Source of the DNA: Octopus sinensis
Taxonomy: Eukaryota
Direction: 5' to 3'
NCBI RefSeq assembly: GCF_006345805.1
Contig: NC_043012.1
Coordinates: 16,678,001 to 16,742,000, forward strand
Length of the DNA: 64,000 nucleotides
The translations under genes and the position numbers were made by a program. The notes below the pieces were generated by a model. It did not search any database, was not told where the DNA came from, and saw only the letters and a program-made list of their open reading frames with translations. Within the stretch, counting starts at the first letter, position 1; each line of letters begins with the position of its first letter. This document shows positions 9,746-56,916 of this stretch, in pieces.

Positions 9746-10300
9746 CTTTTCTTTCTCTTTTGTTTTACTCTCTACATTTCACTTCTAAAATCTGGCAGAA
9801 TGCCACCCACTCTTCAATTTATAGAACACACAAATCCATAGCCATGCCACCCCAGACACTCAAGCACCCAGCTTTCAAATTCCTCTGCTTTCCCCCATTC
9901 CCTTCTCTCCACCACTTCTTCCTCTAAGAGTGGAAATCGGTAATATCCAGGGTATTAATTAACTATTTTTCTCATTACTTCTTTATCCCATTTTGGCCAA
10001 TTTTCCTCAGGCCAATCAGTCAGTCAGTCACATGGTCACTCACCATTCAATCAACCAGTCACTTGCAAATGTCTTTTCCTCTCTCTCTCTCCTCCTCTTC
10101 CTCCCCCTTTCTTTCTCTTTCACTTCTACCACATTGCTCTTTCCTCCCCCCTCCCTCTCTTATTCCCCTCATTATCTTACTCCTCACCTTCCTCTTTCTC
10201 CCAGGTTCTTTCCTTTGTATTCCACCAGGTGTATAACTGAAGAAAACACACTGCTGAGTGTTTCTCCATTGTCTTTTCACCTGAGGGGCTCAGTCCCTGA

Positions 10301-10335
10301 TATAAGAGATAGCCTCGTAAACGTTACTTCTCAGT
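10301..10335 (+). promoter_or_regulatory. Core promoter: TATA-like box (TATAAGAG, 10301) and initiator (TCAGT, 10331)
   Basis: TATA-to-Inr spacing of ~30 nt, 30 nt upstream of a good-context ATG (acaacATG) that opens the signal-peptide exon. Confidence 0.65.
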
Positions 10336-10365: not shown

Positions 10366-10411
10366 ATGAAGTTCCTTCTGACATTGGTCGTCTTTTTTTT
10401 CTCAATTATGG
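10366..10411 (+). CDS. Exon 1 (signal peptide) of a secreted tandem 12-Cys-module protein: MKFLLTLVVFFFSIM(V)
   Basis: MK followed by a hydrophobic core. The phase-1 donor G|GTAAGT at 10412 joins exon 2 in frame to give ...SIMVCG-HS, a plausible cleavage site. Confidence 0.75.
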
Positions 10412-30349: not shown

Positions 30350-31598
30350 GAAGGTTGCTATCTGTCAGTCATTTGGTCATTGGTTGGAATGTCTTGCTAT
30401 GTAAACATCAAACACATCAAATAATCCTTAGAGTATGAAGAGGACAATTAGCGAGCTTAATGAGAAGATACAGTCAACATCTGTTCGCAACCATGGATGG
30501 TTTGACAAATTTCACCATGAATGGGGTGCCCATCATTGTCAAATCCATGGTGTAAGATAACAACAGCTAAATGATGATGATGATGGTGGTGGTGGTGGTG
30601 GTGGTGGTGGTATTGGTGGTGGTGGTGGTGGCGGCGGTGGTGGCGGCGGATGCGGCGGCGGATGCGGCGGTGGTGGTGGTGGTGGTATTGGTGGTGGTGG
30701 TGGTGGTGGTGGTGGTGGTGGTGTGGTATTGGTGGTGGTGGTGATGTTCATGTTGCATTTGTAAAAGAGAAATATGTGGTGATCCTACATTTCCAATGAA
30801 GAATTTCAATGTCCTGCTCTCTCTGCCATCTTACCTACAATGATAAGTTCTGACTTCATGCCACCCCCAACTCCAACCCTACCATAAGCCCCACACTTCC
30901 CTGAAAGATAACAACATGTGATAAATAATTCCGAAACTGTTCAAAGATTCTAACATAACTTATCTTGAGAAATATCCAAATATCTAAAACCTCATCATCA
31001 TTTTATGTCCACTTTTCCTTGTTTGCATGAGTTGGACAGAATTTGTTGTGGCTGATTTTGTATGGCTGGATGCTCTTCCTGTGGCCAACCATCACCTATT
31101 TCCCAGCAAGGTAATATTTTCCCATGGCCAAAGATATTTTTCACAGAAGACTTGAAAGGAACAACACTGCTTGTATGACAGTGATGCTTGTTTACAAGCA
31201 GCACATGATGTCAAGACAAGGAGACACACAAATACACACACACACACACACGTGCACACACACACACACACATGCATACATACATACTGGTGATTTGCTG
31301 TGCTTGAGAAGATACATCAAGCTAAGTGAAATCGTGGGCGTGACCAGTGACGGTGACACATAAAAGGCACCTGTGCCAGTAATATGCAAAAGGCACTCAG
31401 GCTGGTGACATGTAAAGTATACCCAGTGCACTCTGTACAGTGGTTGGAGTAGGGAAGGGTATCTAGCTGGAGAAACCAAGCCAAAACAGAGCAGAGTCTG
31501 GTGCAACTCTCCGGTTTACCAGCTCCAGTCAAACAGTCTTACCTATGCCAACATAGTTTGAATAATTAGACCATTTTTTCCGGAATGTTGAATACAAC

Positions 31599-32687
31599 AT
31601 GGACAAAAAGCAAATTTGCACAATTTTCTTATTCTAGTTCAAGCTAGGCCGAAAAGCTGCTGAAACAGCTCATGATATCAACGATGCGTTTGGCCCAGGA
31701 ACCACTAATGAATGTACAGCTCGATGGTGATTCAAGAAATTTCATAGCAGTGACGAAAGTCTTGAAGATGATAAGCATAGTGGTCGGCCATCAGATGTTG
31801 GCAACAATCAACTAAGAGCCTTAGTCGAAGTCAATCCATGCACAACTGTTATAGAGCTTGCTTCTGAATTAGGCGTAATGTATACAACAATTTCCAACCA
31901 CTTGAAAGAGATTGAAAAAACAAAAATACTTGAAAAATGGATGCTGCACGAATTGAACAACAGCCAAAACAAAAACCCTGTTTTGAAGCATTGTCTTCCC
32001 TACTTTTACACAACAAGAATGACCCATTTCTCAACTGGATTGTGACTTGCGATGAAAAGTGGATTCTTTACGACAACTGGCGATGCTCAGCTCAGTGGTT
32101 GGACGAAGCTCCACGGCACTTCTCGAAGCCAAAGTTGCACCAAAAGAAGGCCATGGTGACTGCTTGGTGGCTTGCGGCTGGTCTCATCCATCACAGCTTT
32201 TTGGATCCAGGCAAAACCATTACGGTGGAGAAGTACTGTCAGTAAATGGATGAAATGCATAAGAAACTCTGACAATAGCCAGCATCGGTCAATAGAAAAG
32301 GACCAATTCTTTTCCACAACACTCAGCCCCATGTTGCACAACTGATACTGCAGAAGTTGAACGAATTGGGCTACGAAACTCTGCCTCATCCGCCACACTC
32401 ATCAAACCTCTCGCCTACCAACTACCACTTTTTCAAGCATCTCAACAACTTCCTGCGTCAGAAATGCTTCAAAATCCAAGACGATGCCAAACACACCTTC
32501 AATGATTTCATCGCCTCCAGAACGCAGGATTTTTACGCTACTGGCATAAATAAACTTGTTTCGCATTGGCAAAATTGTGTTGATTCTGATGGTGTTTATT
32601 TTGATTAATAAAGTTTTGTTTGAGCTGAGATATGTGCATCTGAATTTAAAGGTTAAAAAATGCAAGAACTTTCTTGACAACCTAATA
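31599..32687 (+). mobile_element. Decayed mariner (DD34D) transposon: transposase pseudogene 31599-32608 plus right TIR
   Basis: [50 protein letters not shown] and C..DG.YFD; stops and frameshifts; TIR-like end ttcttgacaacctaaTA. Confidence 0.92.
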
Positions 32688-32750: not shown

Positions 32751-32878
32751 GGTCTTGCAGACTGATATTGTATATTGCATGGACAGAATTGAAGGTTCTT
32801 GTGGTCAGACAACTAGACAGAGTGCTTTGAAACAACTGAACACAAGCTTTCATTACTTCTGCTACAACGGATGGAAAG
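32751..32878 (+). CDS. Exon 3 (module 1, Cys4-6): VLQTDIVYCMDRIEGSCGQTTRQSALKQLNTSFHYFCYNGWK
   Basis: Acceptor tttaatgtAG, donor G|GTATTT; 128 nt, phase 2 to 1, the same length as homologous exon 7; it bridges the phases of exons 2 and 4. Confidence 0.85.
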
Positions 32879-35345: not shown

Positions 35346-35947
35346 CCTGACTCAGGCTCAGAAGTTACAGCCTGACTCAGGCTCAGAAGTTACAGCCTGA
35401 CTCAGGCTCAGAAGTTACAGCCTGACTCGGGCCCAGAAGTTACAGCCTGACTCAGGCTCAGAAGTTACAGCCTGACTCAGGCTCAGAAGTTACAGCCTGA
35501 CTCAGGCTCAGAAGTTACAGCCTGACTCAGGCTCAGAAGTTACAGCCTGACTCAGGCTCAGAAGTTACAGCCTGACTCAGGCTCAGAAGTTACAGCCTGA
35601 CTCAGGTCAGAAGTTACAGCCTGACTCAGGCCAGAAGTTACAGCTGACTCAGGCTCAGAAGTTACAGCCTGACTCAGGCTCAGAAGTTACAGCCTGACTC
35701 GGGCCCAGAAGTTACAGCCTGACTCAGGCTCAGAAGTTACAGCCTGACTCAGGCTCAGAAGTTACAGCCTGACTCAGGCTCAGAAGTTACAGCCTGACTC
35801 AGGCTCAGAAGTTACAGCCTGACTCAGGCTCAGAAGTTACAGCCTGACTCAGGCTCAGAAGTTACAGCCTGACTCAGGCTCAGAAGTTACAGCCTGACTC
35901 AGGCTCAGAAGTTACAGCCTGACTCGGGCCCAGAAGTTACAGCCTGA
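35346..35947. repeat. 25-bp minisatellite, 24 units (cctgactcaggctcagaagttacag)
   Basis: Direct count; three variant units (cctgactcgggcccagaag) start at 35421, 35693 and 35918. Confidence 0.97.
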
Positions 35948-36858: not shown

Positions 36859-37529
36859 CACACAAATTCTATGTGCTTTTATAGTAGTTTACTGTTATGT
36901 TTTTAATTCCCGTAGTTTTCTCATCTTTAACAATTATGCATGTGTCAGTTGCAAGATCTGTATTCAGGTAAGAATATGACTCTTATTGATTGGTGTGGAA
37001 TTCTCTGTGACAAACCAAAAAACCAAAAAAACATCAAAGTGTAAATTAACAACAAGAAAATATAAAATGGTGTTTAATGATCCAATCCATTAATCAATCC
37101 ATCATTCCATCAACAGTATTGATTAATAAATGAATATAATAATATTGAATCATGATTTTTTTTTTTTGATAACCATGCTTATATATTTTTTTACAACTAT
37201 TGTCTTCAACACCTGTTTCCTTCCTGATACTTTGGAGTTTTTGTGTGTGGTGCACACATCCACATGTTGTTGACTTGCCAAATTCCCCTTCTCACAGTAC
37301 CGAGTCAACAACTTGTGGATGTGTACAAAACAGACTCATTGCAACATATCAAGTGATAGAAACCAAAAGAGAGGAAACAAAGAATTTTCCTCACCCAACA
37401 AAAAAAAAAAAGAAAATCGTACAGGTACAGATTCTGAGAAAGAATTCATTTGCTAAACTTAATTTTGATTATTGTTTGCATAATTAAATAAATAAAAATC
37501 TTGTATATCAGTATTTATTGTATAATAAA

Positions 37530-37889
37530 GCTGGCAGAATTGTTAGCAAGCTGACAGAATTGTCAGCATGCTGGCAGACTTGTTAGCAAGCTGACAGAAT
37601 TGTTAGCAAGCTGACAGAATTGTCAGCATGCTGGCAGAATTGTTAGCAAGCTGGCAGAATTGTTAGCAAGCTGGCAGAATTGTTAGCAAGCTGACAGAAT
37701 TGTTAGAAAGCTGGCAGAATTGTTAGCAAGCTTACAGAATTGTTAGCAAGCTGATAGAATTGTTAGAAAGCTGGCAGAATTGTTAGAAAGCTGGCAGAAT
37801 TGTTAGCAAGCTGGCAGAATTGTTAGAAAGCTGGCAGAATTGTTAGCAAGCTGGCAGAATTGTTAGAAAGCTGGCAGAATTGTTAGCAT
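37530..37889 (+). repeat. 20-bp minisatellite, ~18 units (gctggcagaattgttagcaa), derived from the SINE-B head
   Basis: The unit matches the SINE head gagctggcagaattgttagcatg at ~29672, and the array runs directly into the rest of a SINE-B copy. Confidence 0.92.
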
Positions 37890-38732: not shown

Positions 38733-39900
38733 TTCAGGTTGGGGGGAGCAAAATTTGGAAAAGCCAAATGGAATTTGGAAATGGTTTATTGTCCATGGAA
38801 GAGACAATGTATAGCAAAATTATTTATACATAAGTTATTAACTGCCAATAATAGAGATTCTACTCAATGTGTCCACCTTTATTTTCTATCACCATTTGGA
38901 TACGGAGTCTGAATGTGCCACAGGTCTTTATTATAAAATGTGCAGATAATTTGGCCCATTCTTCCTTCAAAACCTGCTTGAGATGTCCAGTTCTAGGATA
39001 AGAAGTTCTGTTGGTACACTGCTCTAAAGTGCTCCAAATTGAATAGTTCAGCAGATTCAAATCTGGGCTGGAGGAGGGCCAAAATTCAAAGGGCCAAAAA
39101 TCAGCAAAATTATTCTTGCAAAATGTTTGCACTTTTTTCACTGTATGAGCAAGTGCCCCATCCTGATTCCACATATAATTACCTTCAGGGTAATTAGCCT
39201 TAAGCCAAAGCTTAAGACACCCTTGACTTGAGATGGTGATTCAGCAATATACAAATCATTTCATCTGTTCACAACAGCATCCACAGTGAAGATTTTCTTA
39301 TCAGAAAATATTTTTAACAGTGAATCCAGATCTCTTGAGAAAGGACCACACACTTCTTTGCCCTTTCAAGCCTCCTGGCCTTCATTGAATTGATTAGGAG
39401 GCGACACAGAGGATTTCAGGCCTAAATCACAGTGAACAGAATTTCTTATAGTCTTGGCACCAACTTCCATGTCAACTGCCAGTTTCCTCGTGGATGTGGT
39501 TGGATCCTTCAAAATGTTAGACTTGAGGGCCTTCAGGAATGCTGGATTTCACTTTTTATTGGTTCCTCCAATGCCTTGCTTCCTCTGAATGCTTTTGATG
39601 TTATCCAAATTATTCTTGATGTTGTAAACTGCGCTTAATGAGACATTAACACATTAACCAACTCAGAAATTTGCTTGATATCAATTCCTGAGCTGAGTAA
39701 ATGAGCAAAGTATTGTCTCATTGCTACTTTAGCTGATATAGTTGGACTTGTACATGAAAAAGCAAATTAAATTGTTACTATGAGACCTAATACTGAAAAT
39801 AAGATTAAAAAAAACAGTTGTTATAATACACCAATGCTACATTAAAAAAAAATGAGGTTTACAAAAAATTCCTGTCAAAAGTTTTGCTTGCCCGTCCTAT
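38733..39900 (-). mobile_element. Decayed Tc1/mariner-superfamily transposon (maT/DD37D-like)
   Basis: ORF 38860-39174: WNQDGALAHT..FWPSSSPDLNLLNYSIW..VIENKGGHIE; degenerate terminal inverted similarity. Confidence 0.85.
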
Positions 39901-40395: not shown

Positions 40396-40577
40396 TTAAA
40401 CCTGATTCAGTTCCTCATTTTCAGTTTTGTTATTCAGTCCTGTGTTTTCTTATCTCTTTTTCTATATTGTCTGGTTTGTTTTCTTCCTTTTTTTTTTTGC
40501 TGTGTTTGTTCTGTTTCTTTTCTTTTTCTTTTTCTTTTTTTTTCTTTTATATTCTACTCTCCTCACCAAACTTGTAG

Positions 40578-41586
40578 ATTACCAGAAATTCCAGAAATGC
40601 TTCAAATCAAACAAGAACAATGTCCAAGAGAAAATAAGGCACTGCTACACAACTTCAGAACTGAATCACAGAAATTTCTTTGAACATGAGTATGAATATA
40701 TCAATCGTGACTTCTTTCATAACTATCCAAACTCTTACAATTGGCAGGGATATTTTGAGGATGACCCTAACAAGCAAGGTGATGGTCAAGTTCATGACCA
40801 AGGTCAAGGCTATCGGTCTGACCAAGCATTGCAACCTGATGCGCCTTTCTCTGAGACTGGCACAGCTGGAATCCAAGCTGATGCAACTGCTCCGGCTAAA
40901 ACAGAAACTGTCACTTCTGCAGCCAAAAAGGATGGTGTTAAAAATGAAAGCGATGATGATGATGATGATGTCAACATGCACGAGTGGCTACGTAACTTTG
41001 GAAATGGCTTTGATCATAATCGTGACTATAATTCCGGCCACAACCGTGACTACTGGGCGAACAAATATAATTGGCATAACAAGAACAACTATTACGATAA
41101 CAATCGCCGCAACAACTACGATGGCAACGACTACGATGGCAACAGAAGACATTGGTATGACAACAGTTACTATGACAATGATGATAACTATTACAACAAG
41201 AAATACAACCATGATGGATGGCAGAAAAGTCACTCCCAAAGATCAGACCTTTTCAGCAACGACTACTATAATCAAAACTTCGAGCGACTGAACCGTGAAA
41301 CTCGAGAAGAACCTGACAAGGAACAGCCCCAGCCTGAAGCGGAGAAACTAAAACCTGACATCCATGGTACCTATGAACAAGACAAGGACTGGGAGAATAA
41401 CAGGAATACACCATTCTATAATAACCACTATCGGAACAACTATTATGATCGTAACAGGTTCTATGACCAAGACTATGATTATGATGGTCGTAACTATGGT
41501 TACAATTACTATAATTCCAATGAACGTAGACCAGATTACTGGGCGTTTTATAACTATGATGTAAGATATCGCACAGACATTTGCAG
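40578..41586 (+). CDS. Exon 4 (module 1, Cys7-9) with a 312-aa Asn/Tyr/Asp-rich insertion
   Basis: Long polypyrimidine tract, acceptor cttgtAG, donor AG|GTAAGT; 1009 nt open, phase 1 to 2; lies within ORF 40427-41590. Confidence 0.92.
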
Positions 41587-42320
41587 GTAAGTGTTTCTTA
41601 TTCATACGCTCTGTTCTTTAGTTATTATTATCATTAGATGCAGACATGGCTGTGTGCTTAAGAAGCTCTCTTTGCAACCAAGTTGGCCCAGGTTCAGTTC
41701 TACTGCATGGTACATTGTGAAAGTGTCTTCTGCTGTAGCCATAGGCTCACCAATCCCTTGTGGGTGAATTTGGTAGACAGAAACTGTATGGAAGCTTGTC
41801 ATGTATATATATATATATCAAATAAAGGTGCTGTAAAATACAACACACAATCATTGCATTTGTTGCTAAACACTGATGAGGTGAAATGCAGCATTATATA
41901 ATGATTCAAAAACTGTTGTGTAATTATGACAGTAATTGGTTGAAATGTGTGTATGGTATATAAAACATTAAATAGTACCTATGTTCGATATGTTATTGTG
42001 TGTGTGTGTGTGTGTTTGTGTGTTTGTGTGTTTGTGTTTGTATATACTCCCTTCACCTCGCGATACCCAATGTTGGTTTGTTTACATCAACATAACTTAG
42101 CAGTTTGACAAAAGGGACTCATAAAATAAGTACTAGATTTTGAAAAATAAATACTGGGGGTGGGGGAAGAGTTTGTTTGACTTAACCCTTCAAGGTCATG
42201 CTCCAGCAATGGCTGCAGTCCAGTGACTGAAACAAGTAAAGAACAAAAGCAAAAATTTATTCATTTAACAATTTGTAATTCCAAACTTTCATTTTTGTTT
42301 TCTTTTACCTTTATTTACAG

Positions 42321-42466
42321 AGGAATGTCAAAGATGAGAGACTGCTCTCATGAAATGAAGAAAGTCTGCAACCAGGAATCTGATAATTTTATGTATAATC
42401 TTAACAACATGATCTATCAATTTGGACGTCTTTTTATGAACTGTGATATGTCAGCTGAATCTGCAG
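42321..42466 (+). CDS. Exon 5 (module 1, Cys10-12): GMSKMRDCSHEMKKVCNQESDNFMYNLNNMIYQFGRLFMNCDMSAESA
   Basis: Acceptor ttatttacAG, donor G|GTACAT; 146 nt, phase 2 to 1; homologous to exon 9 (C..NFM.N..C). Confidence 0.88.
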
Positions 42467-42847
42467 GTACATAAGTGTGTAATTCAAATCATACAAACTT
42501 TAATTTTAGACACAAACCTACATCTCCTGGAGACACATTCTCTCAAAATTTATAAATTCTTATGATGTCAACAACATACAGTGCTCGCTGGTAAGAATAA
42601 AGTTTCTAAAATGGATAGAGAAATTCAAAGGATTGCTTTGGTACAATGAGAGTATGCTTGTTATGTTTACAAGAGATGTAAGTTTGAGTTCCATGAGCAG
42701 CAGCCTTCGAATTTTTTCTTATCAAAAATGGGTTTTTAACCCAATATTTACGCACTATTATTTATAGTGTTACTGCTTCAAGATCCACCATTTCAAAAAA
42801 AAAGAAGAATTTCATATTCTTGTGAAGCATATATATGTATATTATGC

Positions 42848-52802: not shown

Positions 52803-52965
52803 AGCCTTCACCAGAAGCTGAGGCAGTTGCTAAAAGCGAAACATCCTATTGTGACCACCGCAAGGCAATTTCTTGTACCCAACCGTTCCAGAGCTGGTTT
52901 AGCTCTTTCAAAGACAATGAATTCAAGCTATTCTCTGACTATGACACATTGAGGAATATGTGTGG
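52803..52965 (+). CDS. Exon 6 (linker plus module 2, Cys1-3): EPSPEAEAVAKSETSYCDHRKAISCTQPFQSWFSSFKDNEFKLFSDYDTLRNMC
   Basis: Acceptor tgtttctcAG, donor GG|GTAAGT; 163 nt, phase 1 to 2; absent from the ORF track and translated by hand. Confidence 0.88.
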
Positions 52966-54227: not shown

Positions 54228-54355
54228 AACAATGCAGCAAAAGATGTTTCCTTGTATAAACAGAGAGATTGCCTCGTGCAAAGATAATTTCCAATATCCA
54301 TTCGAGACTCTCATACAGTCATTCACTCACCTTTGCAAACCAGAAATCATGGAAG
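54228..54355 (+). CDS. Exon 7 (module 2, Cys4-6): TMQQKMFPCINREIASCKDNFQYPFETLIQSFTHLCKPEIME
   Basis: Acceptor tttgcAG, donor G|GTAAAC; 128 nt, phase 2 to 1. Confidence 0.88.
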
Positions 54356-55607: not shown

Positions 55608-55743
55608 ATCTGACCAACCACCATGAATGCTGGAGCAGCCACAGTGCCAACGTCACTTACGGTCTTTGCAAAGAGCTGATGCAAAGCAAGATGGAATATT
55701 ATTACGACAGACATAAGGGAGATGCTATGCGTTACATCTGCGG
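55608..55743 (+). CDS. Exon 8 (module 2, Cys7-9): DLTNHHECWSSHSANVTYGLCKELMQSKMEYYYDRHKGDAMRYIC
   Basis: T-rich acceptor tattcAG, donor GG|GTAAAT; 136 nt, phase 1 to 2; homologous to both ends of exon 4. Confidence 0.88.
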
Positions 55744-56773: not shown

Positions 56774-56916
56774 ACTTATGTCTGAATTTCAACATTGTGT
56801 GAACATGATAGACTGTGAAGAAGATGCTAGAAATTTCATGGGGAATTTCTTGAGCGAAACCATGCAACCCATCAAAGAGTTCTACCAATGCAATGAGTCA
56901 AGGTACAAAGAAGCTG
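56774..56916 (+). CDS. Exon 9 (module 2, Cys10-12): LMSEFQHCVNMIDCEEDARNFMGNFLSETMQPIKEFYQCNESRYKEA; the CDS continues downstream
   Basis: Acceptor ttcatttAG, donor G|GTAAGT; 143 nt, phase 2 to 1; no stop codon reached. Confidence 0.88.

Follow-up and report, generated by a model that had tools for sequence, protein, structure and literature searches.

The locus examined here raises the question of why one of two related cysteine-rich modules in a likely secreted octopus protein should carry 312 residues, all within a single exon, where its twin carries 23, and what so large an insertion might do. An earlier note on this DNA had pointed out the insertion and suggested a prion-like or sticker-and-spacer domain in a secreted protein, with a self-assembling structural material (egg-case cement, adhesive, skin or biomineral matrix) as its candidate roles and Tyr near Asp as possible sites of sulfation, DOPA formation or cross-linking. 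The window analysed is the whole stretch of 64,000 nt from Octopus sinensis (G000:C16:16678001-16742000 of a 2.72-Gb genome), and positions refer to it unless stated otherwise; nine coding exons lie inside the window and exon 10 lies outside.

The gene, its transcripts and its two modules

The nine exons in the window have GT donors throughout and AG acceptors after exon 1, and joined together they yield 689 residues, free of stop codons and identical to the start of P0004, which is the 714-aa O. sinensis entry XP_036365820.1 of NCBI, ‘uncharacterized protein LOC118766522’. The features of the gene are as follows.

10301..10335, + strand: TATA-like box at 10301 and initiator-like TCAGT at 10331, 30 nt apart; likely core promoter, as judged from its sequence
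10366..10411, + strand: coding exon 1, with the start codon and a hydrophobic, signal-peptide-like N-terminus; matches P0004
29113..29281, + strand: exon 2, module 1, Cys1-3; holds the RLRR furin-type site
32751..32878, + strand: exon 3, module 1, Cys4-6; its 3' end is the loose contig end before exon 4 in five runs
40578..41586, + strand: exon 4, 1009 nt, with Cys7, Cys8, the insert and Cys9; spanned whole by a spliced contig in four of four runs
42321..42466, + strand: exon 5, module 1, Cys10-12; joint from exon 4 in four of four runs
52803..52965, + strand: exon 6, comprising a linker and Cys1-3 of module 2; the loose contig end after exon 5 matches its start in four of four runs
54228..54355, + strand: exon 7, module 2, Cys4-6
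55608..55743, + strand: exon 8, 136 nt, the equivalent of exon 4 in module 2; Cys7-9 and the 23-aa interval
56774..56916, + strand: exon 9, module 2, Cys10-12
G000:C16:16759924, 18 kb past the end of the window: exon 10, the last

Two CCAAT boxes lie near 10000, upstream of the TATA-like and initiator-like pair, and these together with the canonical spacing of the pair suggest a gene which may be tissue-specific and strongly driven. The N-terminus of LOC118766522 looks by eye like a signal peptide, so that the protein is likely to be secreted, as the earlier note had it; cleavage after Gly18 is the likely event and would remove Cys17. The whole protein is of about 84 kDa, with 25 Cys, no CC pair, a pI of 5.5 and contents of 8.8% Tyr, 5.3% Phe and 4.2% Met. 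After module 2 there is a 33-aa C-terminal tail, aromatic and Met-rich and predicted at low confidence to be helical, of which 82% is kept in Argonauta and 48% in P0003. When the octopus's own genome was searched with the C-terminal portion of P0009, a relative, this gene came up and no second copy; the one outside match (E 0.63) contains a stop, reads like a transposase fragment and was rejected.

The introns hold debris of their own. A frameshifted transposase remnant occupies 31560-32610 (+ strand) of intron 2, its overlapping frames reading ...SPTNYHFF, a motif of mariner type. Intron 3 contains a Tc1-type DDE_3 transposase fragment at 38863-39240 (- strand; E 1e-4, below the cut-off) and two minisatellites, at 35346-35947 (25 nt x 24, 97% matches) and 37528-37888 (20 nt x 18, 91%).

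Exon 4 has AG/GT borders, passes from phase 1 to 2 and is an open frame, and the possibility raised earlier, that transcripts splice out its middle, was examined over 40555-42490 in four runs from at most four studies, with tissues coded. In every one of these a single contig spans the exon whole, with 1-2 differences, and joins it to exon 5 at GT..AG; contigs run onward into exon 6 in all four and come from exon 3 in three. Among the joints listed for the four runs there is no internal splice within exon 4, contigs being of a kind that drops rare forms, and the middle of the exon is thus retained. Four further runs gave spliced ends in two cases and no joint inside exon 4. The runs had only been guessed to be RNA, and it is the spliced joints that identify them as such. 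Contig depth cannot rank expression, and four same-species runs with next to no words of the gene are uninformative on that point. Five polymorphisms were seen in eight runs, three silent and two replacement, too few for a selection test.

After the signal, exons 2-5 and exons 6-9 share the same series of phases and encode 12 Cys per module. When the insert is removed the two modules align with a local score of 99, where the highest of 1000 shuffles reached 69, and hhalign pairs them at E 1.9e-5 with a probability of 78%; they are the product of a tandem duplication of a four-exon module. All 24 module Cys are kept in every aligned sequence covering them, barring one misaligned fragment end, and on the strength of this conservation the modules are predicted to be disulfide-bonded. 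They contain 7% Met and little Leu.

An AlphaFold model made from six sequences (mean pLDDT 42, pTM 0.30) consists of helical modules at pLDDT of about 45-80. In this moderate-confidence model the helices of module 1 reach residue 140 and resume at 443, and at the equivalent site of module 2 a turn of three residues links helices 608-632 and 636-651. The C-terminal portion of the distant relative, modelled separately (pLDDT 58), agrees with this. The insert is predicted, then, to sit at a helix-turn-helix, the ‘loop’ being a short turn between two helices. The RLRR furin-type site (residues 53-56) belongs to the initial long helix of module 1 and lies within an insertion relative to module 2; the site is invariant in all relatives covering it, and judging by this motif the protein may be clipped there.

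Pfam PF15481 (CPG4) was matched at E 1.6e-6 to 7.8e-6, over model positions 19-87 of 94 in three stretches, with scores below its gathering cut-off of 32.7 bits in all eight scans (29, 28.7, 26.8, 18.3 and 15.2, and three fragments without a match). DUF19/T20D4.11 (PF01579) had no HMM match at E <= 10 in eight proteins. The Atlas places module 2 nearest to nematode CPG4 and DUF19 clusters (0.88, 187-190 shared features), which serves as a lead only. The folded part therefore appears, by its sequence, to resemble CPG4/DUF19 but is not filed as a member. With the moderate-confidence models Foldseek returned nothing at E <= 0.001 (best VIA: Z 4.8, rmsd 4.0, 121 aligned) and PDB sequence searches gave 0 matches; at such model quality the lack of a clear fold match does not imply a new fold.

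Composition and conservation of the insert

The insert is bounded by Cys codons at 40643 and 41582, which enclose 312 codons without a Cys, whereas the Cys8-Cys9 interval of module 2, which has the same exon phases, is of 23 aa and contains MEYYYDRH. The disparity reported earlier, within a single exon, is therefore correct; the start then given, 40644, falls inside the Cys8 codon, and the codons of the insert are 40646-41581. Its parts, whose limits were set by eye, are listed below.

40646..41581, + strand: the 312-aa Cys-free insert, residues 138-449
40646..40759, + strand: aromatic block A, residues 138-175, 32% aromatic; holds the conserved island FFEH[ED]YEY.NRDF
40760..40963, + strand: spacer 1, residues 176-243, 3% aromatic, rich in Q/G/A/T, net charge -9, ending in a D6 tract
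40964..41290, + strand: aromatic block B, residues 244-352, 22% aromatic, 9 Arg; closes with the conserved island N[DE]YY...[FY]ERLN
41109..41144: 15-nt tandem unit in block B, 2.4 copies here; copy number differs between Octopus species
41291..41383, + strand: spacer 2, residues 353-383, rich in E/P/Q/K, 3% aromatic
41384..41581, + strand: aromatic block C, residues 384-449, 30% aromatic, 9 Arg; ends in the conserved RP[DE]YWAFYNYD

The layout of aromatic blocks and poorly aromatic spacers that had been described is borne out, and all the motifs named are present (HNRDY, NNYYD and YDGN twice each, NNYYDR, DYDYDG, RPDYW). No D7 tract was found, the acidic tract being D6, encoded by (GAT)6.3. 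The insert is an aromatic polyampholyte, with 15.1% Asn, 13.1% Asp, 12.2% Tyr, 7.4% Arg, 2.6% Trp and 0.3% Met; Asp and Glu together make up 19%, the net charge is -23, and there are 59 aromatic residues (38 Tyr, 13 Phe and 8 Trp), 23 Arg and 13 His. It is predicted to be disordered, pLDDT being below 50 over 141-446 and mostly about 20, with a FoldIndex of -0.43. The clustering of aromatic residues into blocks beats chance in three of four sequences (20, 10 and 62 of 2000 shuffles reach it) and is not significant in Argonauta, where 273 of 2000 do.

A prion-like domain, the other term used in the earlier note, was rejected. By the criterion of 30 or more Gln and Asn per 80 aa in a charge-poor core, the insert fails the Q/N test with a maximum of 23 and has 31% charged residues; the four sequences compared have 23, 24, 30 and 18, Argonauta alone reaching 30, through a poly-N tract. 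The charged fraction is 0.30-0.35 and the mean log-likelihood ratio of a PLAAC-style score is negative in all four, the best 60-aa core scoring 8.2 here and only 2.8 in the distant relative.

Relatives were gathered by three word-based homolog searches, in which shared 5-mers are needed (985, 107 and 1740 candidates), and these found P0001 of O. vulgaris, P0002 of Argonauta hians, a distant cluster (P0003, 50% identity) and a partial O. bimaculoides model; a cluster look-up added P0004-P0011. The sample covers three clusters, with four named species and one further lineage. Because the searches depend on shared 5-mers, their return of four clusters, with no non-cephalopod name among them, does not show that the gene is restricted to cephalopods. 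P0012, apparently a mis-spliced gene model of older date, entered none of the counts, and the composition table omits P0006-P0010, which are near-duplicates or fragments. A search of the Atlas with the insert gave no usable match, and among metagenome contigs 0 of 409 pattern matches were confirmed.

The insert is present in 6/6 sequences at 300-317 aa and Cys-free; aromatic residues make up 17-22% of it, aliphatic ones 4-6% and charged ones 30-35%, and its net charge ranges from -6 to -26. Its identity is 89% to O. bimaculoides, 59% to Argonauta and 38% to P0003. Module 1 is 67-98% identical among relatives and module 2 57-72% (in two full-length distant sequences); against Argonauta and P0003 the modules stand at 57-93% and the insert at 59% and 38%. 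Tyr is among its best-kept residues (37, 26 and 24 of 38), 5-9 Trp are kept, and three islands persist throughout, namely the two flanks and the internal N[DE]YY...[FY]ERLN.

Taken whole, the insert gives alignments to Argonauta and P0003 that lie far above shuffles, and when the 45 flanking residues are removed the core still scores 656 against Argonauta (shuffle maximum 208). Against P0003 the core scores 139, which exceeds the maximum of global shuffles (111) but not that of 25-aa block shuffles (152). Aromatic identities to P0003 over the whole insert are 35 of 59, compared with 24.9 +- 2.6 and a maximum of 33 in 200 block shuffles; those in the core are 23, below the block-shuffle maximum of 25. 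Aromatic profiles correlate at 0.94, 0.64 and 0.54, the last being with P0003 and beaten by a circular shift (0.71). As the core is near shuffle level and a circular shift does better, the exact block layout is not conserved at depth. What is conserved at depth is the length and chemistry of the insert, and not its letters or exact layout; the worry that it might be unconstrained among orthologs is to this extent answered.

The genomic ORFs of the distant cluster (P0008, P0010 and P0011) have ends that coincide with the same exon edges, which indicates that the insert was already a single-exon feature in the common ancestor. Its YDGN units number one in O. bimaculoides, two in O. sinensis and three in O. 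vulgaris, and poly-N and poly-G tracts are variable in relatives: short-repeat slippage continues, whilst the total length stays constant.

Possible functions of the insert

Tyr and Arg are residues which act as stickers in condensates, although rules that predict condensation from composition yield many false positives. The insert shows the sticker-and-spacer feature, with long predicted disorder and many aromatic and Arg residues, and the product of Tyr and Arg numbers is 868-1776 in all four sequences. We propose, with a confidence a little short of evens, that Tyr-Arg and Tyr-Tyr contacts of the insert cause the protein to condense, as a dense granule or as dense material outside the cell. 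It would have grown inside its exon by short-repeat slippage, from a turn rich in Tyr, Asp and Arg like the YYYDR of module 2, and the folded module, by pinning both ends, would make of it a closed ring. Its 59 aromatic and 23 Arg residues would serve as stickers, separated by acidic spacers of Q/G/A/T and E/P/Q, whilst the net charge of -23 and the 13 His could allow condensation to be switched by acid pH, Ca2+ or seawater salt, as might occur in an acidic, Ca2+-rich granule or upon contact with seawater. There is a cephalopod parallel in the histidine-rich beak proteins (HBPs) of squid, described as coacervating by His deprotonation and Tyr-Tyr stacking (PMC11931252). However, the divergence of the block layout, the lack of significant clustering in Argonauta, a net charge that ranges from -6 to -26 and the small sample all count against the condensation reading.

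It is unlikely, though it deserves to be weighed, that the insert is a tolerated linker, a spacer grown by slippage in a protein whose work is done by the modules (e.g., as a ligand or carrier like DUF19/CPG4-type proteins), its N/D/Y bias deriving from AAC/GAT/TAT-type repeats in a microsatellite-rich genome. The insert does evolve fastest, its core is near shuffle level against P0003, it contains short DNA repeats in a window full of microsatellites, and two of the five polymorphisms in eight runs change a residue. Against this, its length holds at 300-317 aa in 6/6 sequences despite indels, it has no Cys and little Leu, Ile or Val, the 5-9 Trp and the internal islands are conserved, and the core score of 656 against Argonauta lies far from the shuffle maximum of 208.

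A processed precursor is a slimmer prospect. Convertases would here cut the loop at dibasic sites and free Tyr-rich, possibly sulfated peptides, whilst disulfides hold the halves of module 1 together in the manner of granins or proinsulin. The five dibasic sites of the insert, the RLRR kept in module 1 of all covering relatives, the acidic protein (pI 5.5) and two Tyr in the acidic EH[ED]YEY island, which fit a sulfation-like rule in four of four sequences, are consistent with such processing; but the dibasic sites number 5, 6, 7 and 3 among relatives with none aligned in all four, neither repeated peptide units nor an amidation series of Gly-Lys/Arg is visible, and six signature peptides were absent from the literature searched.

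The remaining readings would give the protein a more particular use, and the first of them, an optical filler, is the condensation mechanism put to one specific use. The earlier note was right that this is no reflectin. A repeated Met-rich MDM motif is the mark of reflectins, and it matched seven places in this genome. At least six reflectin-motif ORFs lie within 140 kb, on both strands, at G000:C1:162.30-162.44 Mb and were used as a composition control, the six distinct ones being stop-to-stop frames that include some non-coding lead-in. The motif occurs 0 times in four of four proteins, and in none of six comparisons did the insert align to these ORFs above the maximum of 200 shuffles. A reflectin was thus rejected, there being no MDM, 0.3% Met and no homology.

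Chemistry is another matter. Blocks B and C together (Y17 R10 W4 F4 H5 G5%) resemble the six ORFs (Y11-20 R7-11 W2-3%) with a cosine of 0.78-0.88, and refractive increments computed from per-residue values are 0.211 for the blocks, 0.207-0.214 for the ORFs, 0.197-0.200 for the modules, 0.200-0.203 for the whole protein and 0.190 for average composition. This match in composition and dn/dc would favour a high-refractive-index material of the secretory pathway, convergent on reflectin, in transparent or light-scattering tissue such as leucosomes, cornea or the matrix of eye or skin, and the modules independently contribute 7% Met, low Leu and an increment above the average. The Tyr/Trp/Arg/Asn/Met composition of reflectins is held responsible for their high index, and leucosomes can be membrane-bound (PMC7266819). 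The score is nonetheless one expected of any Tyr-rich protein, and the Met richness may be a family trait; the ‘clkA’ label carried by a relative (see below) appears 0 times in four supplementary files of a squid chromatophore proteome (PMC6397165), a weak, name-based observation. Leucosomes, for their part, contain a sulfated glycoprotein. We consider it distinctly improbable that the insert serves as such a filler, and put at the same low level the idea that a reflectin-like chemistry exists in cephalopods a second time, without relation to reflectins and suited to secretion: a Tyr/Arg/Trp/Asn ring that grew out of a disulfide-bonded helical domain and condenses, inside vesicles or extracellularly, into light-scattering or index-matching material. 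If true, the refractive increment of Met-rich modules and aromatic loop combined would be of crystallin grade.

The likelihood is lower again that the protein is an aromatic and Met-rich store or a feedstock for sclerotisation, a protein of haemolymph, yolk or a gland that would deliver Tyr, Phe and Met or else become cross-linked, by way of DOPA-quinone, into beak, sucker cuticle or egg stalk. The arylphorin-like storage family offers the parallel, and DUF1397 is a haemolymph protein, an insect cluster of which is among the Atlas look-alikes (0.82, a lead only); the whole-protein Tyr, Phe and Met contents also agree. Storage, however, needs no conserved islands or blocks, the GHGXY repeats of beak proteins are absent, and mussel DOPA adhesives are cationic, no polyanionic one being known in plaques (PMC9999432). 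Least probable of all is a Ca2+-binding matrix protein of the statolith or the Argonauta eggcase, acting through Asp-rich and sulfotyrosine segments: Asp and Glu at 19%, the D6 tract and the net -23 would suit it, but Argonauta, the builder of a calcite case, has the least acidic insert (net -6) with a tract of mixed N/D, and the main text of a preprint on the Argonauta eggcase proteome, weak evidence in itself, makes no mention of it.

The architecture among known secreted proteins

The architecture is real, expressed and conserved, and apparently undescribed so far. Accessions, signature peptides and the clkA label retrieved no published description of the gene or its architecture from literature in which subscription journals were mostly outside the scope, and no relevant paper on DUF19 in cephalopods was found in the literature searched. 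The O. bimaculoides relative (XP_014782791, P0005), whose gene model is truncated in module 2, is labelled in RefSeq ‘probable serine/threonine-protein kinase clkA’; it has no Pfam kinase domain, so the label was rejected, and is likely to be a composition artefact.

Reflectins, suckerins and beak HBPs are self-assembling cephalopod proteins widely used as templates for biomaterials. Should the insert condense, this would be an undescribed self-assembling protein of a different design, in which the sticky disordered region forms a closed loop of a secreted, folded domain and the loop-free twin is a natural control built into the same protein. The gene also provides a case of a low-complexity domain that expands inside a single exon, its letters changing whilst its size and chemical character are maintained, and it could open a first route to the function of CPG4/DUF19-like domains. 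The finding is an ordinary one if the insert is a tolerated linker.

Reflectins resemble the insert in being from cephalopods, disordered and rich in Tyr, Arg, Trp and Asn, with a similar computed refractive increment; the insert differs in being richer in Asn and Asp, without Met, inside a disulfide domain and in a protein with a signal-like peptide, which reflectins are not known to have.

Mussel mfp-3S has a Y/N/G/R/W make-up and self-coacervates. Squid beak HBPs and mussel mfp-3/TMP-1 are, like this protein, secreted, disordered, Tyr-rich and molluscan, but mfp-3 and HBP are of 5-18 kDa, Gly-rich, neutral to cationic and without a folded host domain, whereas the octopus protein is of 84 kDa and acidic. 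By eye, the printed sequence contains none of the GHGXY repeats given as a feature of squid beak HBPs (PMC11931252), and mussel plaque proteins are described as cationic (PMC9999432). SepECP1/2 of the Sepia egg case are closer in size and setting, being of about 70 kDa, secreted, Cys-rich and from a cephalopod. They are reported to have 50-55 Cys, CC motifs and a cationic character (PMC4500399), and of the features looked for (50-55 Cys, CX2GX2CCXGCC, cationic) the octopus protein has none, with its 25 Cys, no CC and pI of 5.5.

The nearest likeness of the folded part is to CPG4, DUF19 and DUF1397, which share predicted all-helical modules of ~170 aa, 12 Cys and a signal-like N-terminus. DUF19 proteins of C. 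elegans are described as secreted and 140-220 aa long (PMC3534327), in a family whose function is given as unknown (bioRxiv 2023.11.07.565949). From CPG4/DUF19 the octopus protein, which scores below the Pfam cut-off, differs in being a tandem pair with a 300-aa aromatic loop.
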